A stretch of 46,738 nt of DNA, taken from a virus (lineage: Duplodnaviria > Heunggongvirae > Uroviricota > Caudoviricetes). Below are positions 1,441 to 22,875 of this stretch, one piece after another (within the stretch, counting starts at the first letter, position 1; the number at the start of each line of letters is the position of its first letter). Location of the stretch: IMG/VR virus record IMGVR_UViG_2563366826_000001. One strand, written 5' to 3'. The position numbers were made by a program, and so were the translations under genes. The notes beneath the pieces were generated by a model, which was not told the DNA's origin, ran no database searches, and worked only from the letters and a program-made list of their open reading frames with translations.

Positions 1441-2489
1441 CACTCCCTGCCTCTGTCATCACGATACTGTGATGCCATGGTGTCCGACTTATGCCCGAGA
1501 AGATGTTGAGCAAACTTATCGCTTATCTGCTTCTCATAGAGTCTTGCAGACAAACTGCGCAACTCGTGAAAGGTAGGCGGATCCCCTTCGAAGGAAAGAC
1601 CTGATGCTTTTCGTGCGCGCATAAAATACCTTGATACTGTGCCGGATGAAAGCGGTTCGCGACGAGTAGATGCAATTATGGTTTCTCCGCCAAGAATCTC
1701 TTTGCATTTATCAAGTGTTTCCTTCATTGATATTCCGAGAGCATCAACATGCAATGCTGTTGGGATGGCAATTTTTACGCCTGTTTTGCTTTGCTCGACA
1801 TAAAGATATCCATCTACGATATCAGACCACTTCATTTCGCATAAATCACCAACTCGTTGCCCGGTAACAACAGCCAGTTCCATTGCAAGTCTGAGCCAAC
1901 ATGGTGATGATTCTGCTGCTTGATAAATTTTCAGGTATTCGTCAGCCGTAAGTCTTGATCTCCTTACCTCTGATTTTGCTGCGCGAGTGGCAGCGACAGG
2001 GTTTGTTGTTATATGGCCTTCAGCTATTGCCTCTCGGAATGCATCGCTCAGTGTTGATCTGATTAACTTGGCTGACGCCGCCTTGCCCTCGTCTATGTAT
2101 CCATTGAGCATTGCCGCAATTTCTTTTGTGGTGATGTCTTCAAGTGGAGCATCAGGCAGACCCCTCCTTATTGCTTTAATTTTGCTCATGTAATTTATGA
2201 GTGTCTTCTGCTTGATTCCTCTGCTGGCCAGGATTTTTTCGTAGCGATCAAGCCATGAATGTAACGTAACGGAATTATCACTGTTGATTCTCGCTGTCAG
2301 AGGCTTGTGTTTGTGTCCTGAAAATAACTCAATGTTGGCCTGTATAGCTTCAGTGATTGCGATTCGCCTGTCTCTGCCTAATCCAAACTCTTTACCCGTC
2401 CTTGGGTCCCTGTAGCAGTAATATCCATTGTTTCTTATATAAAGGTTAGGGGGTAAATCCCGGCGCTCATGACTTCGCCTTCTTCCCAT
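1419..2489 (-). CDS. int: Tyrosine integrase Int (356 aa)
   Basis: N-terminus MGRRRSHERRDLPPNLYIRNNGYYCYRDPRTGKEF matches lambda Int; same length; adjacent to attL. Confidence 0.97.
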   Translation of the reverse strand: MGRRRSHERRDLPPNLYIRNNGYYCYRDPRTGKEFGLGRDRRIAITEAIQANIELFSGHKHKPLTARINSDNSVTLHSWLDRYEKILASRGIKQKTLINYMSKIKAIRRGLPDAPLEDITTKEIAAMLNGYIDEGKAASAKLIRSTLSDAFREAIAEGHITTNPVAATRAAKSEVRRSRLTADEYLKIYQAAESSPCWLRLAMELAVVTGQRVGDLCEMKWSDIVDGYLYVEQSKTGVKIAIPTALHVDALGISMKETLDKCKEILGGETIIASTRREPLSSGTVSRYFMRARKASGLSFEGDPPTFHELRSLSARLYEKQISDKFAQHLLGHKSDTMASQYRDDRGREWDKIEIK

Positions 2490-2685
2490 TTCTGATCCTC
2501 TTCAAAAGGCTACCTGTTACTGGTCGATTTAAGTCAACCTTTACCGCTGATTCGTGGAACAGATACTCTCTTCCATCCTTAACCGGAGGAGGGAATATCC
2601 TGCACTCGCGTACCCATCGACGAACTGTTTCAAGGCTTCTTGGGCGTCGCTGGCGTGCGTTCCACTCCTGAAGTGTCAAGTACAT
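2467..2685 (-). CDS. xis: Excisionase Xis (72 aa)
   Basis: MYLTLQEWNARQRRPRSLETVRRWVRECRIFPPP matches lambda Xis; overlaps int 5' end as in lambda. Confidence 0.95.
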   Translation of the reverse strand: MYLTLQEWNARQRRPRSLETVRRWVRECRIFPPPVKDGREYLFHESAVKVDLNRPVTGSLLKRIRNGKKAKS

Positions 2686-2703
2686 CGCAAAGTCTCCGCA
2701 ATT

Positions 2704-2732
2704 ACACGCAAGAAAAAACCGCCATCAGGCGG
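2704..2732 (-). terminator. Candidate rho-independent terminator (ccgcc-tgat-ggcgg + T6) overlapping stop of the small ORF
   Basis: Minus-strand hairpin gccgcctgatggcgg followed by tttttt. Confidence 0.4.
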
Positions 2733-2892
2733 CTTGGTGTTCTTTCAGTTCTTCAATTCGAATATTGGTTACGTCTGCATGTGCTATCTGCGCCCACAGC
2801 ATCCAGTGGTCATAGCAGTCGCTGATGTTCTCGGCTTCGATAACTCTGTTGAATGGTTCTCCATTCCATTCACCTGTGACTCGGAAGTGCAT
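2725..2892 (-). CDS. Small hypothetical protein (55 aa, MHFRVTGEWNGEPFNRV...)
   Basis: Manually translated ATG-to-TGA ORF below the 60-aa cutoff of the ORF track; position equivalent to lambda ea8.5 region. Confidence 0.4.
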   Translation of the reverse strand: MHFRVTGEWNGEPFNRVIEAENISDCYDHWMLWAQIAHADVTNIRIEELKEHQAA

Positions 2893-2974
2893 TTATCATC
2901 TCCATAAAAAAAACTCGCCGTAGCGAGTTCAGATATAATTTTCACCAAAGGCAGTAGTTGCTTTATGCTAAGAA

Positions 2975-3403
2975 TTATTCAATATCTATTCCTGTAATAT
3001 CTTTTATTTTTTTTCTTGCAAAGCCTTTTGCTAGTGATTTTGAAACACTCATAAGAGTACCAATTCCCTCATCCTTAAAGTTTGTTTTTATAGCTTGCCA
3101 GACCTCCTTTTGACGTAAGTCAGCAATAAAATCATGCCCTCTTGCTGTCAACCTCAGTGGTACTTCGAGCCAACTATATTCAACACCTTCCCCTAACTCG
3201 TTGGACATTATATGACCGAACCCAGGTTTTCCATCAACCCTAACTATTAATTCGTAGTCACATAATAATCGCATATGGAAAATAAAATTTTGGTCATATC
3301 TATTAAAGCCATTATCCTCTAGTTCACTAAGCATCGTGTCAGGGCCATAAGTTTTTTCGAATGCGATAAGTAGATCTTTTAGATATTGCTGGTCTAATTT
3401 CAT
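2975..3403 (-). CDS. Hypothetical protein (142 aa), AT-rich accessory gene
   Basis: ORF with GGAGG RBS 8 nt upstream; low GC relative to flanking lambda genes. Confidence 0.6.
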   Translation of the reverse strand: MKLDQQYLKDLLIAFEKTYGPDTMLSELEDNGFNRYDQNFIFHMRLLCDYELIVRVDGKPGFGHIMSNELGEGVEYSWLEVPLRLTARGHDFIADLRQKEVWQAIKTNFKDEGIGTLMSVSKSLAKGFARKKIKDITGIDIE

Positions 3404-8515: not shown

Positions 8516-8806
8516 TTAGTGATTCAGGCCGTTACCGCGTCCGTCGAGAAAAACTTCCACGAGCAAATCACGGGTATAAGTGCGCTCGATGCCGCGATGC
8601 AGATAAAGCCGTCCGCGTAAATTAGCTGATGCAGTCCAGGTACCATCTTTGTGTTTGACCAGCATTCCTGGCATGACCGCGCCGCGATTAACGGTCTGCG
8701 TTCCGTAATGTTGATGAACCATAAAAACTCCTGCCCGTAAGCTGGGCTGCTGAACATATAGAGACTTCTGCGCGTATTCAGGCGGTGGATGGCCGCCGGT
8801 TGTCAT
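8516..8806 (-). CDS. Hypothetical early-left operon protein (96 aa, MTTGGHPPPEYAQKS...)
   Basis: ATG with GAGG RBS; the 136-aa form in the ORF track starts at a TTG; position corresponds to lambda kil/cIII/N region. Confidence 0.5.
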   Translation of the reverse strand: MTTGGHPPPEYAQKSLYVQQPSLRAGVFMVHQHYGTQTVNRGAVMPGMLVKHKDGTWTASANLRGRLYLHRGIERTYTRDLLVEVFLDGRGNGLNH

Positions 8807-9004
8807 AACTAAGCCGCCTCGTTGAAGCGACTGAGGTATAAAGTGTTGTGTTGATTTCAGCTGGTCACACCGACGTTCACGCGTCCGCTTCACCCCTCGC
8901 ACTCCCCGGAGCCTGCTGAAATTCAAGCTGCGGATCTAAGCGGTCATCGCAACGGTGAATCAGGTGGTTGCCGTATCGTTGTGTTGTTGCGATATGGTGA
9001 TAAT

Positions 9005-9050
9005 AGCTATTGCTATTGGTGATATCAATACTTATTGCTATTGGTTAATG
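9005..9050. promoter_or_regulatory. Candidate oL operators/pL region: two direct copies of TATTGCTATTGGT (9008-9020, 9033-9046) flanking a TGATATCA palindrome
   Basis: Repeat seen in sequence; related copies occur in the cI-cro intergenic region. Confidence 0.45.
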
Positions 9051-9169
9051 TGTTTTGATATTAAATGTTTGATAGCAAAAAGAATTAATTTTGTGACTTG
9101 CATCGCATAGCGATAACTGAAGCAGTAGTGTGGTGGTTTTTTGAGCGGTGTGTGATGAGAGGAGGGGAC

Positions 9170-9200
9170 AAAAGAAAACCCGGCACGGTGGCCGGGTTAT
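9170..9200 (-). terminator. Rho-independent terminator downstream of the two-gene module
   Basis: Hairpin cccggc-acggtg-gccggg; on the minus strand followed by ttttcttttg. Confidence 0.55.
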
Positions 9201-9222
9201 TAATTAAATTAGTCAGTTTTTT

Positions 9223-10029
9223 CTACTGTAACATAGAGGCAGCATTCAGCATCTTTTCGTAATATGAACGCATGTCTTCTTTGCTATATGCGTTGATAAG
9301 ATTATCAGCGTGTTTTTCCAGTAGATTTAGCTGCTGTTTTGCTGACTTTTCTTGTGCTGTCGTTTCAGCGGCAAAAATTACAAATGAATCAATATTTGAA
9401 TTGTATAATTCGTAGGCTTTAGTAATTGTTAAAACACTTATCGCAGCTTCACCCATTTGTTTTTTTATATTTTCAGAACGAAAATCTAATGTTTCTGTAA
9501 GATGGTATTTGCCATTTTTTAACAAAAAATCTGCAACTAACCCTTCTTCATTACTAATTGGATAATTAGCTACGATTTTATGTTGGGAAAGATCTTCAAA
9601 ATACTTACTGAAAATTCCATGTTGTATAAAGGTGGATTTTAATTCAGAAAAAACCTTTTTTTTCAACTGCTTATGTGGTTGTTTTTGTGGGTTTACTAAC
9701 CGATTCATTAGATCAGTAACTTTAGCTTCGTAATCTTCGTTGGCTTGAAGAGTGAACATGCCAAATGACGATAACGATAATGCTCCCTTAAAAAGACAAG
9801 GAAGAAGTTCAGCATTGTTGATTTTTTGTGACAAATCAAAAAGCGAGGTTGAAAGATCCTCTAAGTAATCTAAGGTAAGATCTTTGTCAATCGCTTTAAG
9901 TTTTGAAACTGAATTGAGCATACGTACGTCTATGTCAGAGTCATGGTAAACGATCAAACCAACGTTAATCGTTTCACCTTTCTCTAAGTTCGGTGTAACT
10001 CTGATTAAGCTGTATTTGAAAGTTTTCAA
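9223..10029 (-). CDS. DUF3037-like protein (268 aa), second gene of the cI-downstream module
   Basis: N-terminus MKTFKYSLIRVTPNLEKGETINVGLIVY resembles the DUF3037 N-terminal signature (from memory); TTG start overlapping upstream TGA (TTGA); AT-rich. Confidence 0.55.
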   Translation of the reverse strand: MKTFKYSLIRVTPNLEKGETINVGLIVYHDSDIDVRMLNSVSKLKAIDKDLTLDYLEDLSTSLFDLSQKINNAELLPCLFKGALSLSSFGMFTLQANEDYEAKVTDLMNRLVNPQKQPHKQLKKKVFSELKSTFIQHGIFSKYFEDLSQHKIVANYPISNEEGLVADFLLKNGKYHLTETLDFRSENIKKQMGEAAISVLTITKAYELYNSNIDSFVIFAAETTAQEKSAKQQLNLLEKHADNLINAYSKEDMRSYYEKMLNAASMLQ

Positions 10030-10874
10030 GATGTTATCTCCAGTCTTATGGCATTTAGCCTATCGATTCGCTCCTCGCTGTCCCACCACTTCAAAAAATA
10101 CTCCTTATGCATTGGTGGCATCCATGCTTCAGGCATAGAGTTAAGTATATCAGATATAGTCTCAACTCCAATTTTTTCAATTTTGTCAAGGACAGATAAT
10201 GCGCACTTTCTCAGATCATCAGTGTCGCCAATGAATTGTTTAGCAATCGTCCAGTTTGTTGTTGTACTGGAGTCTGTTGGTAGTATATGAGGGGTATTTC
10301 GTGGCCAGCCTATAACAAAAGAGCTTAGACTAAAATCGAATGTTTTAACTATAACATTGCCTCGGGTGTTTTCCATGTATAAGTAGTTGTTGAGGTGTCT
10401 GTCAATGTTATATACAAATTGATCAAATGCATAAATTGCCCAGAGTTGCTTCTTTAAGGATTCAGAAGCATTTGAGAGCAAATTTATCCATTGAGGACTA
10501 TTGAGACCAGATTTCCAGGCTGAAAACTCTATGCGAGAGCCAAAAACATACTCCCCATTAGCAATACACTTGAGAATTTTGCACACAGGTGTAGCGATGC
10601 CGCATTTTTCAGCTAAATTTGTGCAAAACCATTCCGCTGCCGGTACTTGAGTTGGGTTTTGTACAGGAAAAGGTGGGGTGGAACGCATGCTTTTAACTGC
10701 ATATTCCATTTCATCAGTGGCAATAGCGAAACCAGAAAGGTGTGCAGTGCCTAAGCTTGAAGGTGTATATTCATGAAATTCTAATTCAAACAAACTTCCT
10801 TGCTCTGGTTTCACTTCATCAGTGTTTGGCTCTTGTTCTTTCGTCATCAACTTTTTTCCCCAAATCGAAGACAT
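10026..10874 (-). CDS. Atypical kinase-like protein (282 aa) with PI3/4-kinase/HipA-type catalytic loop
   Basis: YNIDRHLNN (D158-R-H-x-x-N) followed 22 residues later by TFDFS, matching catalytic-loop/DFG-like spacing; AAGAGG RBS; AT-rich; 47 nt downstream of cI. Confidence 0.6.
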   Translation of the reverse strand: MSSIWGKKLMTKEQEPNTDEVKPEQGSLFELEFHEYTPSSLGTAHLSGFAIATDEMEYAVKSMRSTPPFPVQNPTQVPAAEWFCTNLAEKCGIATPVCKILKCIANGEYVFGSRIEFSAWKSGLNSPQWINLLSNASESLKKQLWAIYAFDQFVYNIDRHLNNYLYMENTRGNVIVKTFDFSLSSFVIGWPRNTPHILPTDSSTTTNWTIAKQFIGDTDDLRKCALSVLDKIEKIGVETISDILNSMPEAWMPPMHKEYFLKWWDSEERIDRLNAIRLEITS

Positions 10875-10920
10875 GCGGACCTCTTAAATTTGAACAACAT
10901 CATAATGATTAGCTAATCCG

Positions 10921-11613
10921 CTACCCATGCTTCCTATACGTCTGCGGCATGCTCCCAATAACCTTACCGAAGATGAACACCCGGTTCATCTCGTCTTTCT
11001 CGATCGGGTCCCACGGTGAGTAGCTCTTGTTATCAGAGATAACCAGCAGCTTATCCTTCATCATTTGCAGACGCTTTACATGGGCTGTGTCGTCGTACAG
11101 AAACGCATAGATACCATCACCGTCGAAAGATTTAACCGTGATATCAACGAACAGCAGATCACCTGGTTCGATCGTTCCTGACATGCTGTCACCACGCACG
11201 TTAATGATGCGGATATTTTCCGCCTTCCTGCCATCGAACATGTGACGAGCATCGTCAAACGAGTACTCAACCGAGCGTAGAACTTCTACAAACTCACGGT
11301 TGATTACACCCGGCCCGGCACTGACTTCTATATCAAGAACGTCAATTTTGAAGTATTTGGAATGGCTGACAGCAGGCTTCCCTGATTGTTGACCGTCATT
11401 TCTCATCGGGCCTATGCCTGATGAGAGCCATTCTGTTCGAACACCCAATGCATTAGCTATTTCAACAATTTTTGTTGAGCCGCGCGCGTTGCCGCTTGTC
11501 AGTCTCCAGATTGTGGGTTGAGCTACGCCAGACGCCTTTGCAAGAGCGCCTTGAGACATTCCAGATTGTTCCATCGCTAGGTTTAAGCGATCAGCAAGAG
11601 TTTCTTTTTTCAT
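10921..11613 (-). CDS. cI: CI-type prophage repressor (HTH + S24 LexA-like peptidase), about 230 aa from the ATG at 11613
   Basis: N-terminal HTH (LSQGALAKASGVAQPTIWRL), Ala-Gly cleavage site (SAGPG), GDSM serine and KR lysine motifs; divergent from cro; not lambda cI sequence. Confidence 0.85.
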   Translation of the reverse strand: MKKETLADRLNLAMEQSGMSQGALAKASGVAQPTIWRLTSGNARGSTKIVEIANALGVRTEWLSSGIGPMRNDGQQSGKPAVSHSKYFKIDVLDIEVSAGPGVINREFVEVLRSVEYSFDDARHMFDGRKAENIRIINVRGDSMSGTIEPGDLLFVDITVKSFDGDGIYAFLYDDTAHVKRLQMMKDKLLVISDNKSYSPWDPIEKDEMNRVFIFGKVIGSMPQTYRKHG

Positions 11614-11655
11614 AAGTTTTAATTTATACGCTTGCGTATTGATGGTCAAAACACG

Positions 11656-11715
11656 TTTTGCTATTGCTTGGGTTAATACGCATTGCTATTATTCATTCAT
11701 TGCAATACCAATAGG
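11656..11715. promoter_or_regulatory. Candidate oR operators with pRM/pR region (TTGCTATTG-type repeats)
   Basis: ttgctattgcttgg, cattgctattatt and caataccaatagg repeats between divergent cI and cro-like genes. Confidence 0.5.
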
Positions 11716-11723
11716 AATTGATA

Positions 11724-11951
11724 ATGACAAATCAAACCATTCAACTCGCAATCAGTATTACAGGTAGTCAAAAACGACTGGCAGATCTATGCGGTGTAGC
11801 CCAACCCACAGTTTGGCGTTGGCTACACGGTGGCGGAATTGATGCCCGCTATGTAATGAAAATTGTCTCAGCCACTGGTGGAAAGATTAAACCAGCAGAT
11901 ATTCGTCCCGACCTCGCACCATTGTTTAACGCGAGTAATTCTGCCGCCTAA
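11724..11951 (+). CDS. Cro-like HTH regulator (YdaS family), 75 aa
   Basis: MTNQTIQLAISITGSQKRLADLCGVAQPTVWRW; AGGAA RBS 6 nt upstream; the ORF-track start at 11718 is a TTG. Confidence 0.8.
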   Translation: MTNQTIQLAISITGSQKRLADLCGVAQPTVWRWLHGGGIDARYVMKIVSATGGKIKPADIRPDLAPLFNASNSAA

Positions 11952-11975: not shown

Positions 11976-12521
11976 ATGACTATGCAACCACTTACATACC
12001 AACAGACTAGCGGATTTAGCCCGACTGCGGTGATAAATCGTTCTCAAACAAAACAGGCGCCAGGCCACGAAAAAATCCGTGATGCCGTTCGCGCCTGGTC
12101 GGCTGCAGATAATCAGGATGTTGTTGCCGCACTCATTGTGAATGAGTATCGGGAGCAGGGCGGCGGCACCATCGATTTCCCTGATGATGTCAGTCGTGCA
12201 CGCCAGAAGCTGTTCCGCTTCCTCGATAACAAATTCGATTCTGAAAAATACCGAAATAACGTGCGTGAACTGACCCCGGCAATTCTGGCGGTACTACCGC
12301 TGGAATATCGCGGCCACCTGGTTGAGCAGGATAGCTACATGGCTCGGCTGGCTGAAATGGAAAAGGAACTCAGTGAGGCAAAACAGGCTGTCATTCTCAA
12401 CGCACCACGCCACCAGAAACTGAAGGAGATGAGTGAAGGCATTGTGTCGATGTTTCGTGTGGACCCGGATCTGGCTGGTCCACTGATGGCGATGGTCACC
12501 ACCATGCTGGGGGCAATATGA
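11976..12521 (+). CDS. YdaT-like protein in the cII position (181 aa), putative lysis-lysogeny regulator
   Basis: Position between cro-like gene and O; YdaT-like assignment from memory, tentative. Confidence 0.5.
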   Translation: MTMQPLTYQQTSGFSPTAVINRSQTKQAPGHEKIRDAVRAWSAADNQDVVAALIVNEYREQGGGTIDFPDDVSRARQKLFRFLDNKFDSEKYRNNVRELTPAILAVLPLEYRGHLVEQDSYMARLAEMEKELSEAKQAVILNAPRHQKLKEMSEGIVSMFRVDPDLAGPLMAMVTTMLGAI

Positions 12522-14235: not shown

Positions 14236-14525
14236 CAGGCAAAGAGGCAATTCTTCACTACCTGAAAACGCACCGGACTTTCTGCGCGCCGGATGTAGCT
14301 GCGGCAACAGGCGTGACTGTAACCAGCATCAATCAGGCAGCAGCCAAAATGGCACGGGCAGGAATCCTGGTCGTTGATGGCAAGGTCTGGCGAAAGGTGT
14401 ATTACCGGTTCGCTACCAGGGAGGAGCGGGAAGGAAAGGTGAGCACGAACCTGATTTTCAAGGAGTGTCGCCAGAGTGCCGTGATGAAACGGGTATTGAT
14501 GTTTTTGGGGGGGGTAGGGGTATAA
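14232..14525 (+). CDS. ren: Ren (97 aa)
   Basis: MTGKEAILHYLKTHRTFCAPDVAAATGVTVTSINQAAAKMARAGILVV matches lambda Ren. Confidence 0.9.
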   Translation: MTGKEAILHYLKTHRTFCAPDVAAATGVTVTSINQAAAKMARAGILVVDGKVWRKVYYRFATREEREGKVSTNLIFKECRQSAVMKRVLMFLGGVGV

Positions 14526-14813
14526 GCGAAACGTTATGAGTGTGTGGGTATTCGTGCCATTGCGATGTGGTAGAGAGTGCTGAGGGCGTCATGGTTGTGT
14601 TGCGAAGACTACGTTGCACTTGAGCAGGATCTTGCAGAATTTGAGCGCGAGTTCCGTGTTGCTGATGCGACTATACCCTCGATGTAGAGGAACTTAATTA
14701 GCTGATTGTAATTCAATATGCCTACTAAGACCGGTTGGGTATGAACTAGTAAAGGCTGCAAAATCCTATAGAGTGTTAACGCAACCAAAAACGTTAAGCA
14801 CGGAGAAAAAAAC

Positions 14814-15566
14814 ATGGATCCTAAATTACTGTATGCCACGTTTAAACGAAATGACGCACCAGCTTGGCGCTGCCCGAACTGTATGAATGAAACACTGGAG
14901 ATTGTCGCTGATAGTTTTGTAGAAACTGATTCAAGCGCAACAACTCAGTTTAGAGATGAAGTATGGTTTGATGAGGAAATGTCGGGAGGAGTATTCAGTT
15001 GCGTGCTGCGCTGTACCCGCCAAGCCTGTCAGGAGAATGTTGCTTTGTCTGGGCAGGTTGTTGCTGTAGAATGCTTCAATGACGAAATGACGGAGCGTTG
15101 GTATGTTTCTGGTTTCCGTCCTAAGTATTTCTATCCACCACTTCCTCTATTCCTGTTTCCTGAAAAGTGCCCTGAAGATATAGCTGATCTCTTGGCGGAA
15201 GTATCAGCTCTGATCCCCTCGCACCCAGCTTCAGCGGTGAACACCATGAGAACCATACTGGAGATGATGCTTGATAGTCTTGATGTACCAAGAGAGAAAA
15301 CAGTTAAAGGCAAGATAATACGTCTTTCTACGCATGAAAGAATCACAAATTATTCAGATAAACTGGGATCAAATAAAGATGCATTCATGGCGTTAAAGTG
15401 GTTGGGGAATCACGGCAGTCATGGAGGGATTAAAGTCACAAGGTCCTCTATTAATGATGCCTGTATTCTCATTGGTCATTTGATTGACTTCTTATTCTTA
15501 GAAAGCCCGGATGTAACTATTCATATTGAACGGATAAACAACGTGTATGCACCCAAAAAGGAGTAA
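14814..15566 (+). CDS. Zinc-ribbon protein with C-terminal DUF4145/HEPN-like domain (250 aa)
   Basis: Cys clusters C20-x2-C23 and C63/C67-x3-C71; C-terminal LKWLGNHGSHGG motif (GNxxxHG); AT-rich insertion between ren and ninB. Confidence 0.55.
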   Translation: MDPKLLYATFKRNDAPAWRCPNCMNETLEIVADSFVETDSSATTQFRDEVWFDEEMSGGVFSCVLRCTRQACQENVALSGQVVAVECFNDEMTERWYVSGFRPKYFYPPLPLFLFPEKCPEDIADLLAEVSALIPSHPASAVNTMRTILEMMLDSLDVPREKTVKGKIIRLSTHERITNYSDKLGSNKDAFMALKWLGNHGSHGGIKVTRSSINDACILIGHLIDFLFLESPDVTIHIERINNVYAPKKE

Positions 15567-18556: not shown

Positions 18557-19654
18557 TTAGAACTGGTAAACCAGACCTACAGCAACGATGTCATCAGTGC
18601 TTACACCGAGTGCTTTAGTGAAGTCATTTTTGTCAAGCAGGTTGATTTTGTAATCAACGAAAGTAGACATATTTTTGTTGAAGTAATAGGTTGCACCTAC
18701 ATCAACATATTTGACTAAGTCCTGATCGCCCCATACTCCAAGATCCTTACCTTTAGATTGCAGGTAAGCAACGGACGGACGCAGACCGAAATCGAACTGA
18801 TATTGTGCAACAGCTTCGAAGTTTTGGGCTTTATTAGCAACGAAGTGATCAGCAAATACAGTCATATTCTGGGTTTCAGAATAGGTAGTGGCCAGGTAAA
18901 TGTTGTTAGCGTCATATTTCAGACCTGCGGCCCAAACTTCTGCATTTTTACCGGAAGCAAATACTTCAGGAAGAACTTTCCCTGCATTAACTTGAGTGTC
19001 GGTACGATCAGATTTTGCATAAGTTGCACCGATACCGAATCCTTCGTATTCATAGGTAGCAGAGAAACCGAAGCCATCACCGTTACCTTCGGTGTAGTTA
19101 TCGAAATCGCTACGATCGTTTTTGCCTTGGTACTGAGCAGCAAAGTTCAGACCATCAACCAGGCCAAAGAAGTCGTTGTTACGATAGGTTGCAACACCAG
19201 TGGTGCGACCAGTCATGAACACATCTGTTTGGGTCCAGGTATCGCCACCGAATTCTGGCAGAACGTCAGTCCACGCACCGATGTCGTATGCTACACCGTA
19301 GTTACGGCCGTAATCGATGGAGCCGTAGTCACCGAATTTCAGGCCAGCGAAGGCAAGACGGGTTTTATCTTTGGAGGAACCTTGAGATTCAGCGCGGTTG
19401 CCTTTGAATTCATATTCCCACTGACCGAAACCAGTCAGTTGATCGTTGATTTGGGTTTCACCTTTGAAGCCAAGACGGGCATAAGTAGTATCACCATCAT
19501 CTGCATCATTAGAGGAGAAGTAGTGCTTAGCATTAACTTTCCCGTACAGATCCAGCTTGTTACTGTCTTTATTATAAATTTCAGCTGCCTGAGCAGACAT
19601 CGCCATCAGTACTGATGCAGCTACAGCAGAAATTGCCACTGTTAATTTTTTCAT
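18557..19654 (-). CDS. nmpC: Outer-membrane general porin, OmpC/NmpC/Lc family (365 aa), intact
   Basis: Signal peptide [39 protein letters not shown]..., C-terminal YQF; matches porin family; located between Q and holin as in DLP12. Confidence 0.9.
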
Positions 19655-22449: not shown

Positions 22450-22875
22450 TTAGTGCGGAAATATTTGTGTAGTGTTCTGAATGTTCTCAGTAAAGAGTAA
22501 TGAATTATCAAAGGTATAGTAATACCTTTTGTTTTCGTGGATATTTGTAATCCATCTGAAAACCCCTGCTGTAGCAAGATTTTTTCTGTATTCGTAAAAT
22601 GATAACTCTCCTGATTTGAATCCTTTTAAGGTGGCTTCTATAAGGCATTTATTTTTTGAAAATCTTACATTTACAACCTTACCCTGTCCTTTTATTAAAA
22701 CCGTATTATCGTTTTCAAGAACAAGATGAATATTCTCTGTAGCTAAATAGTAAATGTAATGTGAGACATTGTGACGTTTTAGTTCAGAATAAAACCAGTG
22801 ATAGTTTAAATTATTTCGCACTTTATCGAATATTTGTTTAAAAATGGCAACCTGAGCCATTGTAGTACCTTCCAT
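22450..22875 (-). CDS. Hypothetical protein (141 aa), AT-rich
   Basis: ORF in a strongly AT-rich block just left of cos; function unknown. Confidence 0.5.

Follow-up and report, generated by a model that had tools for sequence, protein, structure and literature searches.

A kinase and DUF3037 gene pair behind the repressor of a lambdoid Escherichia coli prophage is a divergent relative of the HipAD class and a candidate anti-phage module

What is encoded by a low-GC pair of genes that occupies, in a lambdoid prophage, the place held by rexA and rexB in phage lambda? The question is raised by the virus record IMGVR_UViG_2563366826_000001, whose 46,738 nucleotides (nt) are the window analyzed here. 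The window is a lambdoid Escherichia coli prophage, and on its minus strand, directly downstream of a cI-type repressor gene, it carries a gene for a HipA-like Ser/Thr kinase (282 amino acids (aa), 10874..10026, ATG start) followed by a gene for a DUF3037 partner that we call HipD-like (268 aa, 10029..9223, TTG start). An earlier inspection of this DNA made without database searches, hereafter the sequence-only reading, had proposed that the pair is a candidate defense or toxin-type system and that its composition is not known from any named one. The second proposal is refuted, as the same composition is found in PDC-M66, in DS-6/HipAD, in the pair of Retron-Sda1 and in the HipA/HipD genes of Escherichia phage PhiR5_1. 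The first is supported as to a candidate defense; the DS-6/HipAD and Sda1 pairs protect against phage. Comparisons of protein profiles place the pair in a divergent, distinct subfamily of the known HipAD/DS-6/PDC-M66 class, with a kinship that is real but distant.

The kinase and its DUF3037 partner

The assignment of the 282-aa protein as a kinase is well supported by its Pfam score, its fold matches and its invariant catalytic residues. It scores 28.3 bits against Pfam HipA_2, above the gathering cut-off of 27, with an additional sub-threshold match to HipA_C, and it is assigned to PHROG 3162 (1e-66). Its AlphaFold2 model, made from 27 homologues, reaches a predicted local distance difference test (pLDDT) score of 86 and a predicted template modeling (pTM) score of 0.83, and the only disordered part is residues 1–26, which are also variable. 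Foldseek matched the kinase to Helicobacter pylori CtkA (1e-7) and E. coli HipA (~1e-6) in the PDB, with further matches to Legionella HipT, CotH and the type II PI4-kinases (PI4KII). A profile search of PDB sequences returned nothing significant for the kinase, the solved HipA and HipT chains standing at E ~0.9. The HipA-type fold suspected in the sequence-only reading was recovered by both profile hidden Markov model (HMM) search and structure comparison, and the motifs on which it had relied were numbered correctly: the loop YNIDRHLNN holds D158, H160 and N163, and D180, in TFDFS, lies 22 residues past D158. K61 (in EYAVK), D158, R159, H160, N163 and D180 (in FDFS) are invariant in the 27 homologues, down to 32% identity, and K61, D158, H160, N163 and D180 are the predicted catalytic residues.

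The likeness to HipBA, HipBST and CtkA resides in this kinase fold, with Foldseek values from 1e-7 to 1e-5 for 3akk, 3dnt, 3tpv, 7vkb and 8ezr. The catalytic Asp, the Asn and the Mg-binding Asp of the window kinase are found at a HipA-like spacing; the corresponding HipA positions are D309, N314 and D332. However, the window kinase lacks the N-terminal domain of HipA and consists of the catalytic core only, short like HipT and CtkA. The surroundings differ as well: both a HipB-type helix-turn-helix (HTH) antitoxin and HipS are absent, and the partner is an unrelated protein with a DUF3037 domain and a nuclease-like domain. Whereas HipB is encoded upstream of HipA, the partner gene is located downstream of the kinase gene, and its product has no HTH family match. 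The pair falls outside the canonical HipBA kind of type II toxin-antitoxin system.

The partner begins with MKTFKYSLIRVTPNLEKGETINVGLIVY, as quoted when it was first recognized as DUF3037-like, and the HMM search agreed: it matches Pfam DUF3037 with E = 1.6e-9 over residues 6–64, as do 26/26 family members tested. It is assigned to PHROG 5137. The predicted structure (pLDDT 86.5) has two domains. Residues 1–112 form the DUF3037 domain, for which Foldseek found no PDB counterpart, and residues ~125–268 are predicted to form a restriction-endonuclease-like alpha/beta core that is PD-(D/E)xK-like. The Foldseek matches of the partner in the PDB are weak (best E = 1.6e-3), and a profile search of PDB sequences gave nothing significant. 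An exhaustive profile search with the partner collected 783 clusters at 50% identity, and almost all of these have 260–300 aa and match end to end. Counted over 144 representatives with a mutual identity below 50%, conservation is highest at D/E167 (143/144), N172 (142/144), D182 (139/144) and K/R171 (132/144), while E179 is variable and gives way to Q, A or S in roughly one third. From its conservation, the 167/171/172/182 cluster looks like a functional site, although its residues do not stand in the canonical D...(D/E)xK arrangement.

A recurrent pair and its relation to HipAD, DS-6 and PDC-M66

Searching with the partner profile, we gathered related loci from 9 bacterial genome loci, belonging to several Enterobacterales genera, Haemophilus felis and Oceanospirillum, and from 63 IMG/VR viral contigs. 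The kinase gene is directly upstream of the DUF3037 gene on a common strand in 70/72 loci, the two open reading frames (ORFs) overlap by 4 nt in 55/70, and a hairpin with a T-run is present 3′ of the pair in 49/55 distinct pairs. Between kinase and partner, the matrices of pairwise identity show a correlation of r = 0.97, so that the two genes are inherited together. The ratio of non-synonymous to synonymous substitution rates (dN/dS) is 0.03–0.09 where dS is estimable (unsaturated), which shows strong purifying selection on both genes. The pairing is not due to chance, since it recurs in 70 of the 72 loci with dN/dS values this low. No match was obtained by tblastn of both proteins against 50,697 phage records, and prophages and IMG/VR contigs are the only known sources of the subfamily.

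In a single ORF of 541 aa from the search for representatives, P0188, a full DUF3037 partner is preceded by the N-terminal part of a kinase, which hhalign matches to the kinase family at 99.3%. We rejected it as Rosetta-stone evidence because the segment between the two domains resembles frameshifted read-through. Rather than a true fusion, it is likely to be an artifact of frameshifting or assembly in a high-GC organism.

Several systems of this composition have been described. A strong association of DUF3037 with HipA-like kinases has been reported, and PADLOC labels such a pair PDC-M66 (PMC12548924). The pair in the Retron-Sda1 operon is a standalone defense against phage Bas51, in which deletion of the kinase abolishes defense and deletion of the DUF3037 gene is toxic (PMC12548924). 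DS-6, validated by the DefensePredictor study, has the same composition and protects strongly against phage Bas1, and this defense is lost in the catalytic mutant D139A of DS-6A (PMC13092281). The DS-6 A-B complex with DNA was predicted by AlphaFold3, which suggested DNA binding, not cleavage, and the C-terminus of DS-6B gave an HHpred match to DUF1829 at 78% (PMC13092281). The same paper states that Brenes and Laub 2025 discovered DS-6 independently and gave it the name HipAD (PMC13092281). Neither the RefSeq accession of the window, WP_000846934, nor WP_231217097 was found in eight complete supplementary files of DefensePredictor or in the covered parts of its Tables S3, S4, S5 and S10.

DS-6B links these systems to the slot occupied by the window pair: it and the ‘HipD antitoxin’ of Escherichia phage PhiR5_1 (PV340545) share 100% identity. 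In this phage the order is cI, ‘HipA toxin’, ‘HipD antitoxin’, a terminator hairpin and kil-gam-bet-exo, so that its HipAD occupies the same cI-downstream lambdoid slot as the window pair and ends in an identical 21-nt hairpin. The two-gene plan is also shared, with a small kinase (~250–280 aa) followed by a DUF3037 protein of ~270 aa. In DS-6, a system of E. coli (Brenes and Laub 2025; DeWeirdt, Mahoney and Laub 2026), the kinase likewise comes first and the genes overlap by 4 nt (DS-6 coordinates 2415–3164 and 1591–2418). With PDC-M66, the common trait is the composition of kinase and DUF3037 protein as described in PMC12548924. The Retron-Sda1 pair, which we compared by its description, resembles the window pair as a kinase and DUF3037 defense that stands alone, with a required kinase and a DUF3037 protein whose loss is toxic. 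It differs in its retron context, which is not a post-repressor one, and in the C-terminus of its DUF3037 protein, which reportedly resembles a retron DNA-binding protein, whereas the window partner has a restriction-endonuclease-like fold (PMC12548924).

Pairwise BLASTP against DS-6A and DS-6B is marginal (E = 0.004 for the window partner against DS-6B), and homology therefore had to be shown by profiles. By hhalign, DS-6A aligns with the window kinase family at 96.8% probability (E = 2.9e-10, 172 columns), making the two families homologous, and its D139 aligns with D158 of the window kinase. The catalytic loops differ, being of the canonical HipA type, D-R-H-x-x-N, in the window kinase and reading NADRTLTDKGGNVN in DS-6A. 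Among the partners, DS-6B would fall outside the 783 partner-family matches, and the DUF1829 match reported for its C-terminus was not found in 26 window-family members. The PADLOC E-values given here refer to individual models of PADLOC-DB v2, and not to the thresholds of the PADLOC pipeline. The match of the window partner to PDC-M66B (2.6e-8) spans residues 1–190. For the two PDC-M66 models together, the scores are 6e-15 and 4e-16 with the DS-6 proteins, versus 1.5e-3 and 2.6e-8 with those of the window, and given these scores PADLOC may miss this locus.

The slot between cI and the immunity terminator

The repressor gene upstream of the pair (11649..10921, minus strand) encodes 242 aa with matches to Pfam Peptidase_S24 (1.5e-18) and HTH_3 (1.5e-6). 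The kinase gene starts 46 nt downstream of it on the same strand. This spacer (10875..10920, minus strand) contains the kinase Shine-Dalgarno sequence AAGAGG, 5 nt 5′ of the ATG, and a scan of its minus strand gave no promoter-like or terminator-like site. The TTG start of the partner overlaps the TGA stop of the kinase in the sequence ‘TTGA’ (10029..10026). An intrinsic terminator, equivalent to lambda t(imm), was located by a terminator scan at 9198..9177 on the minus strand, 25 nt past the partner gene, with an 8-bp stem holding 6 G-C pairs and followed by TTCTTTTG. A site at 10375..10348 (minus strand) was considered as an internal promoter for the partner and rejected, there being fewer promoter-like hits than in shuffled controls (5 vs 7.1).

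The operators of a lambdoid immunity region are present on both sides. A 49-nt operator-rich repeat with TTGCTATTG motifs occurs at 8994–9042 (oL) and at 11642–11690 (oR). The latter copy is part of an oR operator cluster with a divergent pRM/pR region, marked by this repeat and by inverted repeats, in the interval between cI and a cro-like gene (11642..11727, no strand assigned). On the other side, the oL operators and a pL-like promoter occupy 8994..9050 (minus strand), identified by a promoter-like site and the operator repeat. The promoter itself (9028..9000, minus strand; TTGATA-17-TATTAT, 10/12 matches) drives the early genes kil, gam, bet and exo leftward. The order oR/pRM, cI, kinase, partner, terminator, oL/pL is that of lambda cI-rexA-rexB-t(imm)-oL. 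In composition, the GC content is 0.31–0.40 over 9200–10800 vs ~0.52 on both flanks, and overall 0.366 for the cassette vs 0.511 for the window; this low GC marks the cassette as imported cargo. The sequence-only reading had described two same-strand, translationally coupled, AT-rich genes behind cI, a hairpin terminator at 9170–9200 and a lambda-like architecture without RexA or RexB, and all of these statements hold. No Rex model was among the PADLOC matches at E <= 1. RexA and RexB are a sensor and membrane ion-channel pair. The likeness to lambda RexAB lies in where the genes are and how they are arranged (pRM-cI, two genes, terminator, oL), and for both pairs an exclusion function with expression in the lysogen is presumed. 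The components differ, with a kinase and a nuclease-like protein in the window, and genomic position alone is common to the two.

Related phages reveal how this slot is used. The cI gene of the window has 95–98% DNA identity to that of phages PhiR30_1, PhiR68_2 and 4A7, and similarity to these siblings ends at the cI stop codon, which makes the 46-nt spacer part of the swapped cassette. With near-identical cI and flanks, the slot of PhiR30_1 (L002 2607–3961) holds PDC-M63A (DUF6932) and PDC-M63B, and that of 4A7 (L003 2597–4013) holds PDC-M11A and PDC-M11B, an ASCH domain protein. In PADLOC, PDC-M63 and PDC-M11 have no more than ‘candidate’ status as defense systems. An identical 21-nt hairpin, ACCCGGCCACCGTGCCGGGTT, follows three of these cargoes, namely the pair of the window (terminator 9177–9198), PDC-M63 in PhiR30_1 (L002 2579–2599) and HipAD in PhiR5_1 (L076 4363–4383). 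The slot is a cassette-exchange hotspot bounded on the left by the cI stop codon and on the right by the t(imm) hairpin, since siblings with the same cI and flanks hold different cassettes before one terminator. Among 5426 complete E. coli genomes, 24 carry the pair at >=99% identity, in one case, of E. coli sequence type (ST) 69 (NZ_CP102488), in a prophage integrated beside tRNA-Thr, and ~950 match the query solely at 9150–9204, a stretch of 55 nt with the terminator.

Beyond these siblings, a repressor gene is immediately upstream of the pair in 59/67 loci. The upstream repressors comprise 45 of the HTH + S24 type, in 20 clusters at 60% identity, and 14 of the short HTH_3/Phage_CI_repr type. 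A few loci have another upstream gene and no repressor, so that the module is not strictly tied to cI. In L034 (2414–3067) this gene encodes an SRAP (SOS-response-associated peptidase) protein, and in L041 and L042 (2005–2550) a 181-aa protein without a Pfam family.

Other parts of the prophage gave additional observations. Between the pL-like promoter (~9000) and kil (8516–8722), the interval 8722–8990 has no annotated or obvious ORF for an N-type antiterminator and is unannotated in RefSeq. The position of cII (11976–12521, plus strand) is taken by a 181-aa protein with a YdaT_toxin domain, named ‘toxin YdaT domain-containing protein’ in RefSeq, and not by a lambda-type CII. In the nin region, after ren, a DUF4145 protein of 250 aa (14814–15566, plus strand) lies at a low-GC patch (0.42–0.48 at 14400–15000); it has no PADLOC match and may be another cargo gene. 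In what is apparently the late-regulatory part, the opposite strand encodes a 365-aa Gram-negative porin (18557–19654, minus strand; Pfam Porin_1 1e-156), and such a phage-borne outer-membrane porin could alter receptor availability. Two small proteins, with DUF2513 (142 aa, 2975–3403, minus strand) and DUF1398 (141 aa, 22450–22875, minus strand), are cargo-like, and no PADLOC match was obtained for either.

Proposed function of the pair

We consider that the pair is most likely, with a probability of roughly two in three, a prophage-borne two-gene module of the toxin/antitoxin type that acts against phages by superinfection exclusion or abortive infection, as a divergent HipAD-class member and swappable cargo. 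The lysogen would transcribe the two genes together with cI, as suggested by the 46-nt gap and its lack of promoter or terminator signals, and their translation is coupled by the TTGA overlap. With its catalytic residues intact, the kinase would be the effector that arrests growth, a toxicity expected from its homologues. The DUF3037 protein would bind the kinase and keep it inactive, consistent with the toxic effect of deleting its counterpart in homologous systems, and its C-terminal domain, judging by the fold, probably binds nucleic acid and may serve as the sensing or regulatory part. Infection by a second phage would then free the kinase to phosphorylate a phage protein or an essential host protein, and the infection would be aborted. 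A host target has a precedent in the aminoacyl-tRNA synthetases phosphorylated by HipA and HipT.

Several points weigh against this interpretation. DS-6A is remote from the window kinase, with 21% identity over 117 residues by BLASTP (E = 0.014), and the partner profile aligns with DS-6B no further than the DUF3037 domain and linker, at 18 bits, ending at about residue 139. The match of the kinase to PDC-M66A is weak (1.5e-3) and is surpassed by the one to PDC-M03A (8e-7). The literature covered gave no experiment with the pair or with other members of its subfamily. That the lysogen expresses the two genes, and on one transcript with cI, is only inferred from the layout. Finally, the C-terminal domain of the partner could be an enzyme and not a passive regulator, because its acidic/basic cluster is well conserved.

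A plain toxin-antitoxin or addiction module, which would stabilize the prophage or promote dormancy and persistence like HipBA without an anti-phage role, would agree with the HipA-family fold and catalytic site of the kinase, with the toxicity of DUF3037-gene deletion in a homologous system and with the annotation of the PhiR5_1 pair as toxin and antitoxin. We nevertheless regard it as unlikely, since both homologous systems that have been tested give kinase-dependent phage protection, and sibling phages place other defense candidates in the same slot. Post-segregational killing would also be of little use to an integrated prophage, and the partner has no HipB-like HTH domain. The near-universal D/E167, K/R171, N172 and D182 of the 144 partner representatives could instead indicate reversed roles, in which the PD-(D/E)xK-like domain would be a nuclease effector and the kinase would sense infection or license the nuclease by phosphorylation. 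This arrangement seems to us more doubtful still: no canonical D...(D/E)xK can be read in the partner, E179 is replaced in about a third of the sequences and the Foldseek support is weak, with the best E of 1.6e-3 given above. The toxicity caused by loss of the Sda1 DUF3037 protein fits an antitoxin better, and the AlphaFold3 modeling of DS-6 suggested binding of DNA, not its cleavage (PMC13092281).

The location directly after the repressor in 59/67 loci, behind many immunity types, might also mean that the pair regulates its own lysis-lysogeny switch or induction, for instance by phosphorylating cI, proteins of the RecA pathway or host factors, with no role in exclusion. This seems very improbable, as sibling phages that share cI and flanks function with other, unrelated cassettes in the slot, which makes the cargo dispensable for the switch, and the low GC (0.366 vs 0.511) marks imported cargo.

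Returning to an anti-phage module of the HipAD class, one can imagine a more elaborate version of it, in which the partner is a nucleic-acid-recognizing or catalytic PD-(D/E)xK protein that detects phage DNA and frees the kinase or is licensed by it, and in which the subfamily is a dedicated ‘after-cI’ exclusion module. We hold this version to be speculative and improbable as a whole. If true, it would amount to a kinase-nuclease immune circuit with a sensing logic unlike that currently assumed for HipAD, and to a dedicated exclusion module behind at least 20 S24-type repressor clusters.

For the family, these results remove a false lead on novelty, the architecture being that of the published HipAD/DS-6/PDC-M66 class, found in the same slot of a sibling phage. 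The class in turn gains a sizeable and distinct subfamily, whose kinase is matched weakly by the PDC-M66A model of the 2023 PADLOC collection. The restriction-endonuclease-like fold predicted for the C-terminus of the partner gives a concrete, testable handle on the HipAD class. For the phages, the stretch from the cI stop codon to t(imm) holds HipAD, the pair described here, PDC-M63 or PDC-M11 in near-identical genomes, and its boundaries offer a simple way to mine for defense candidates that are expressed in the lysogen.

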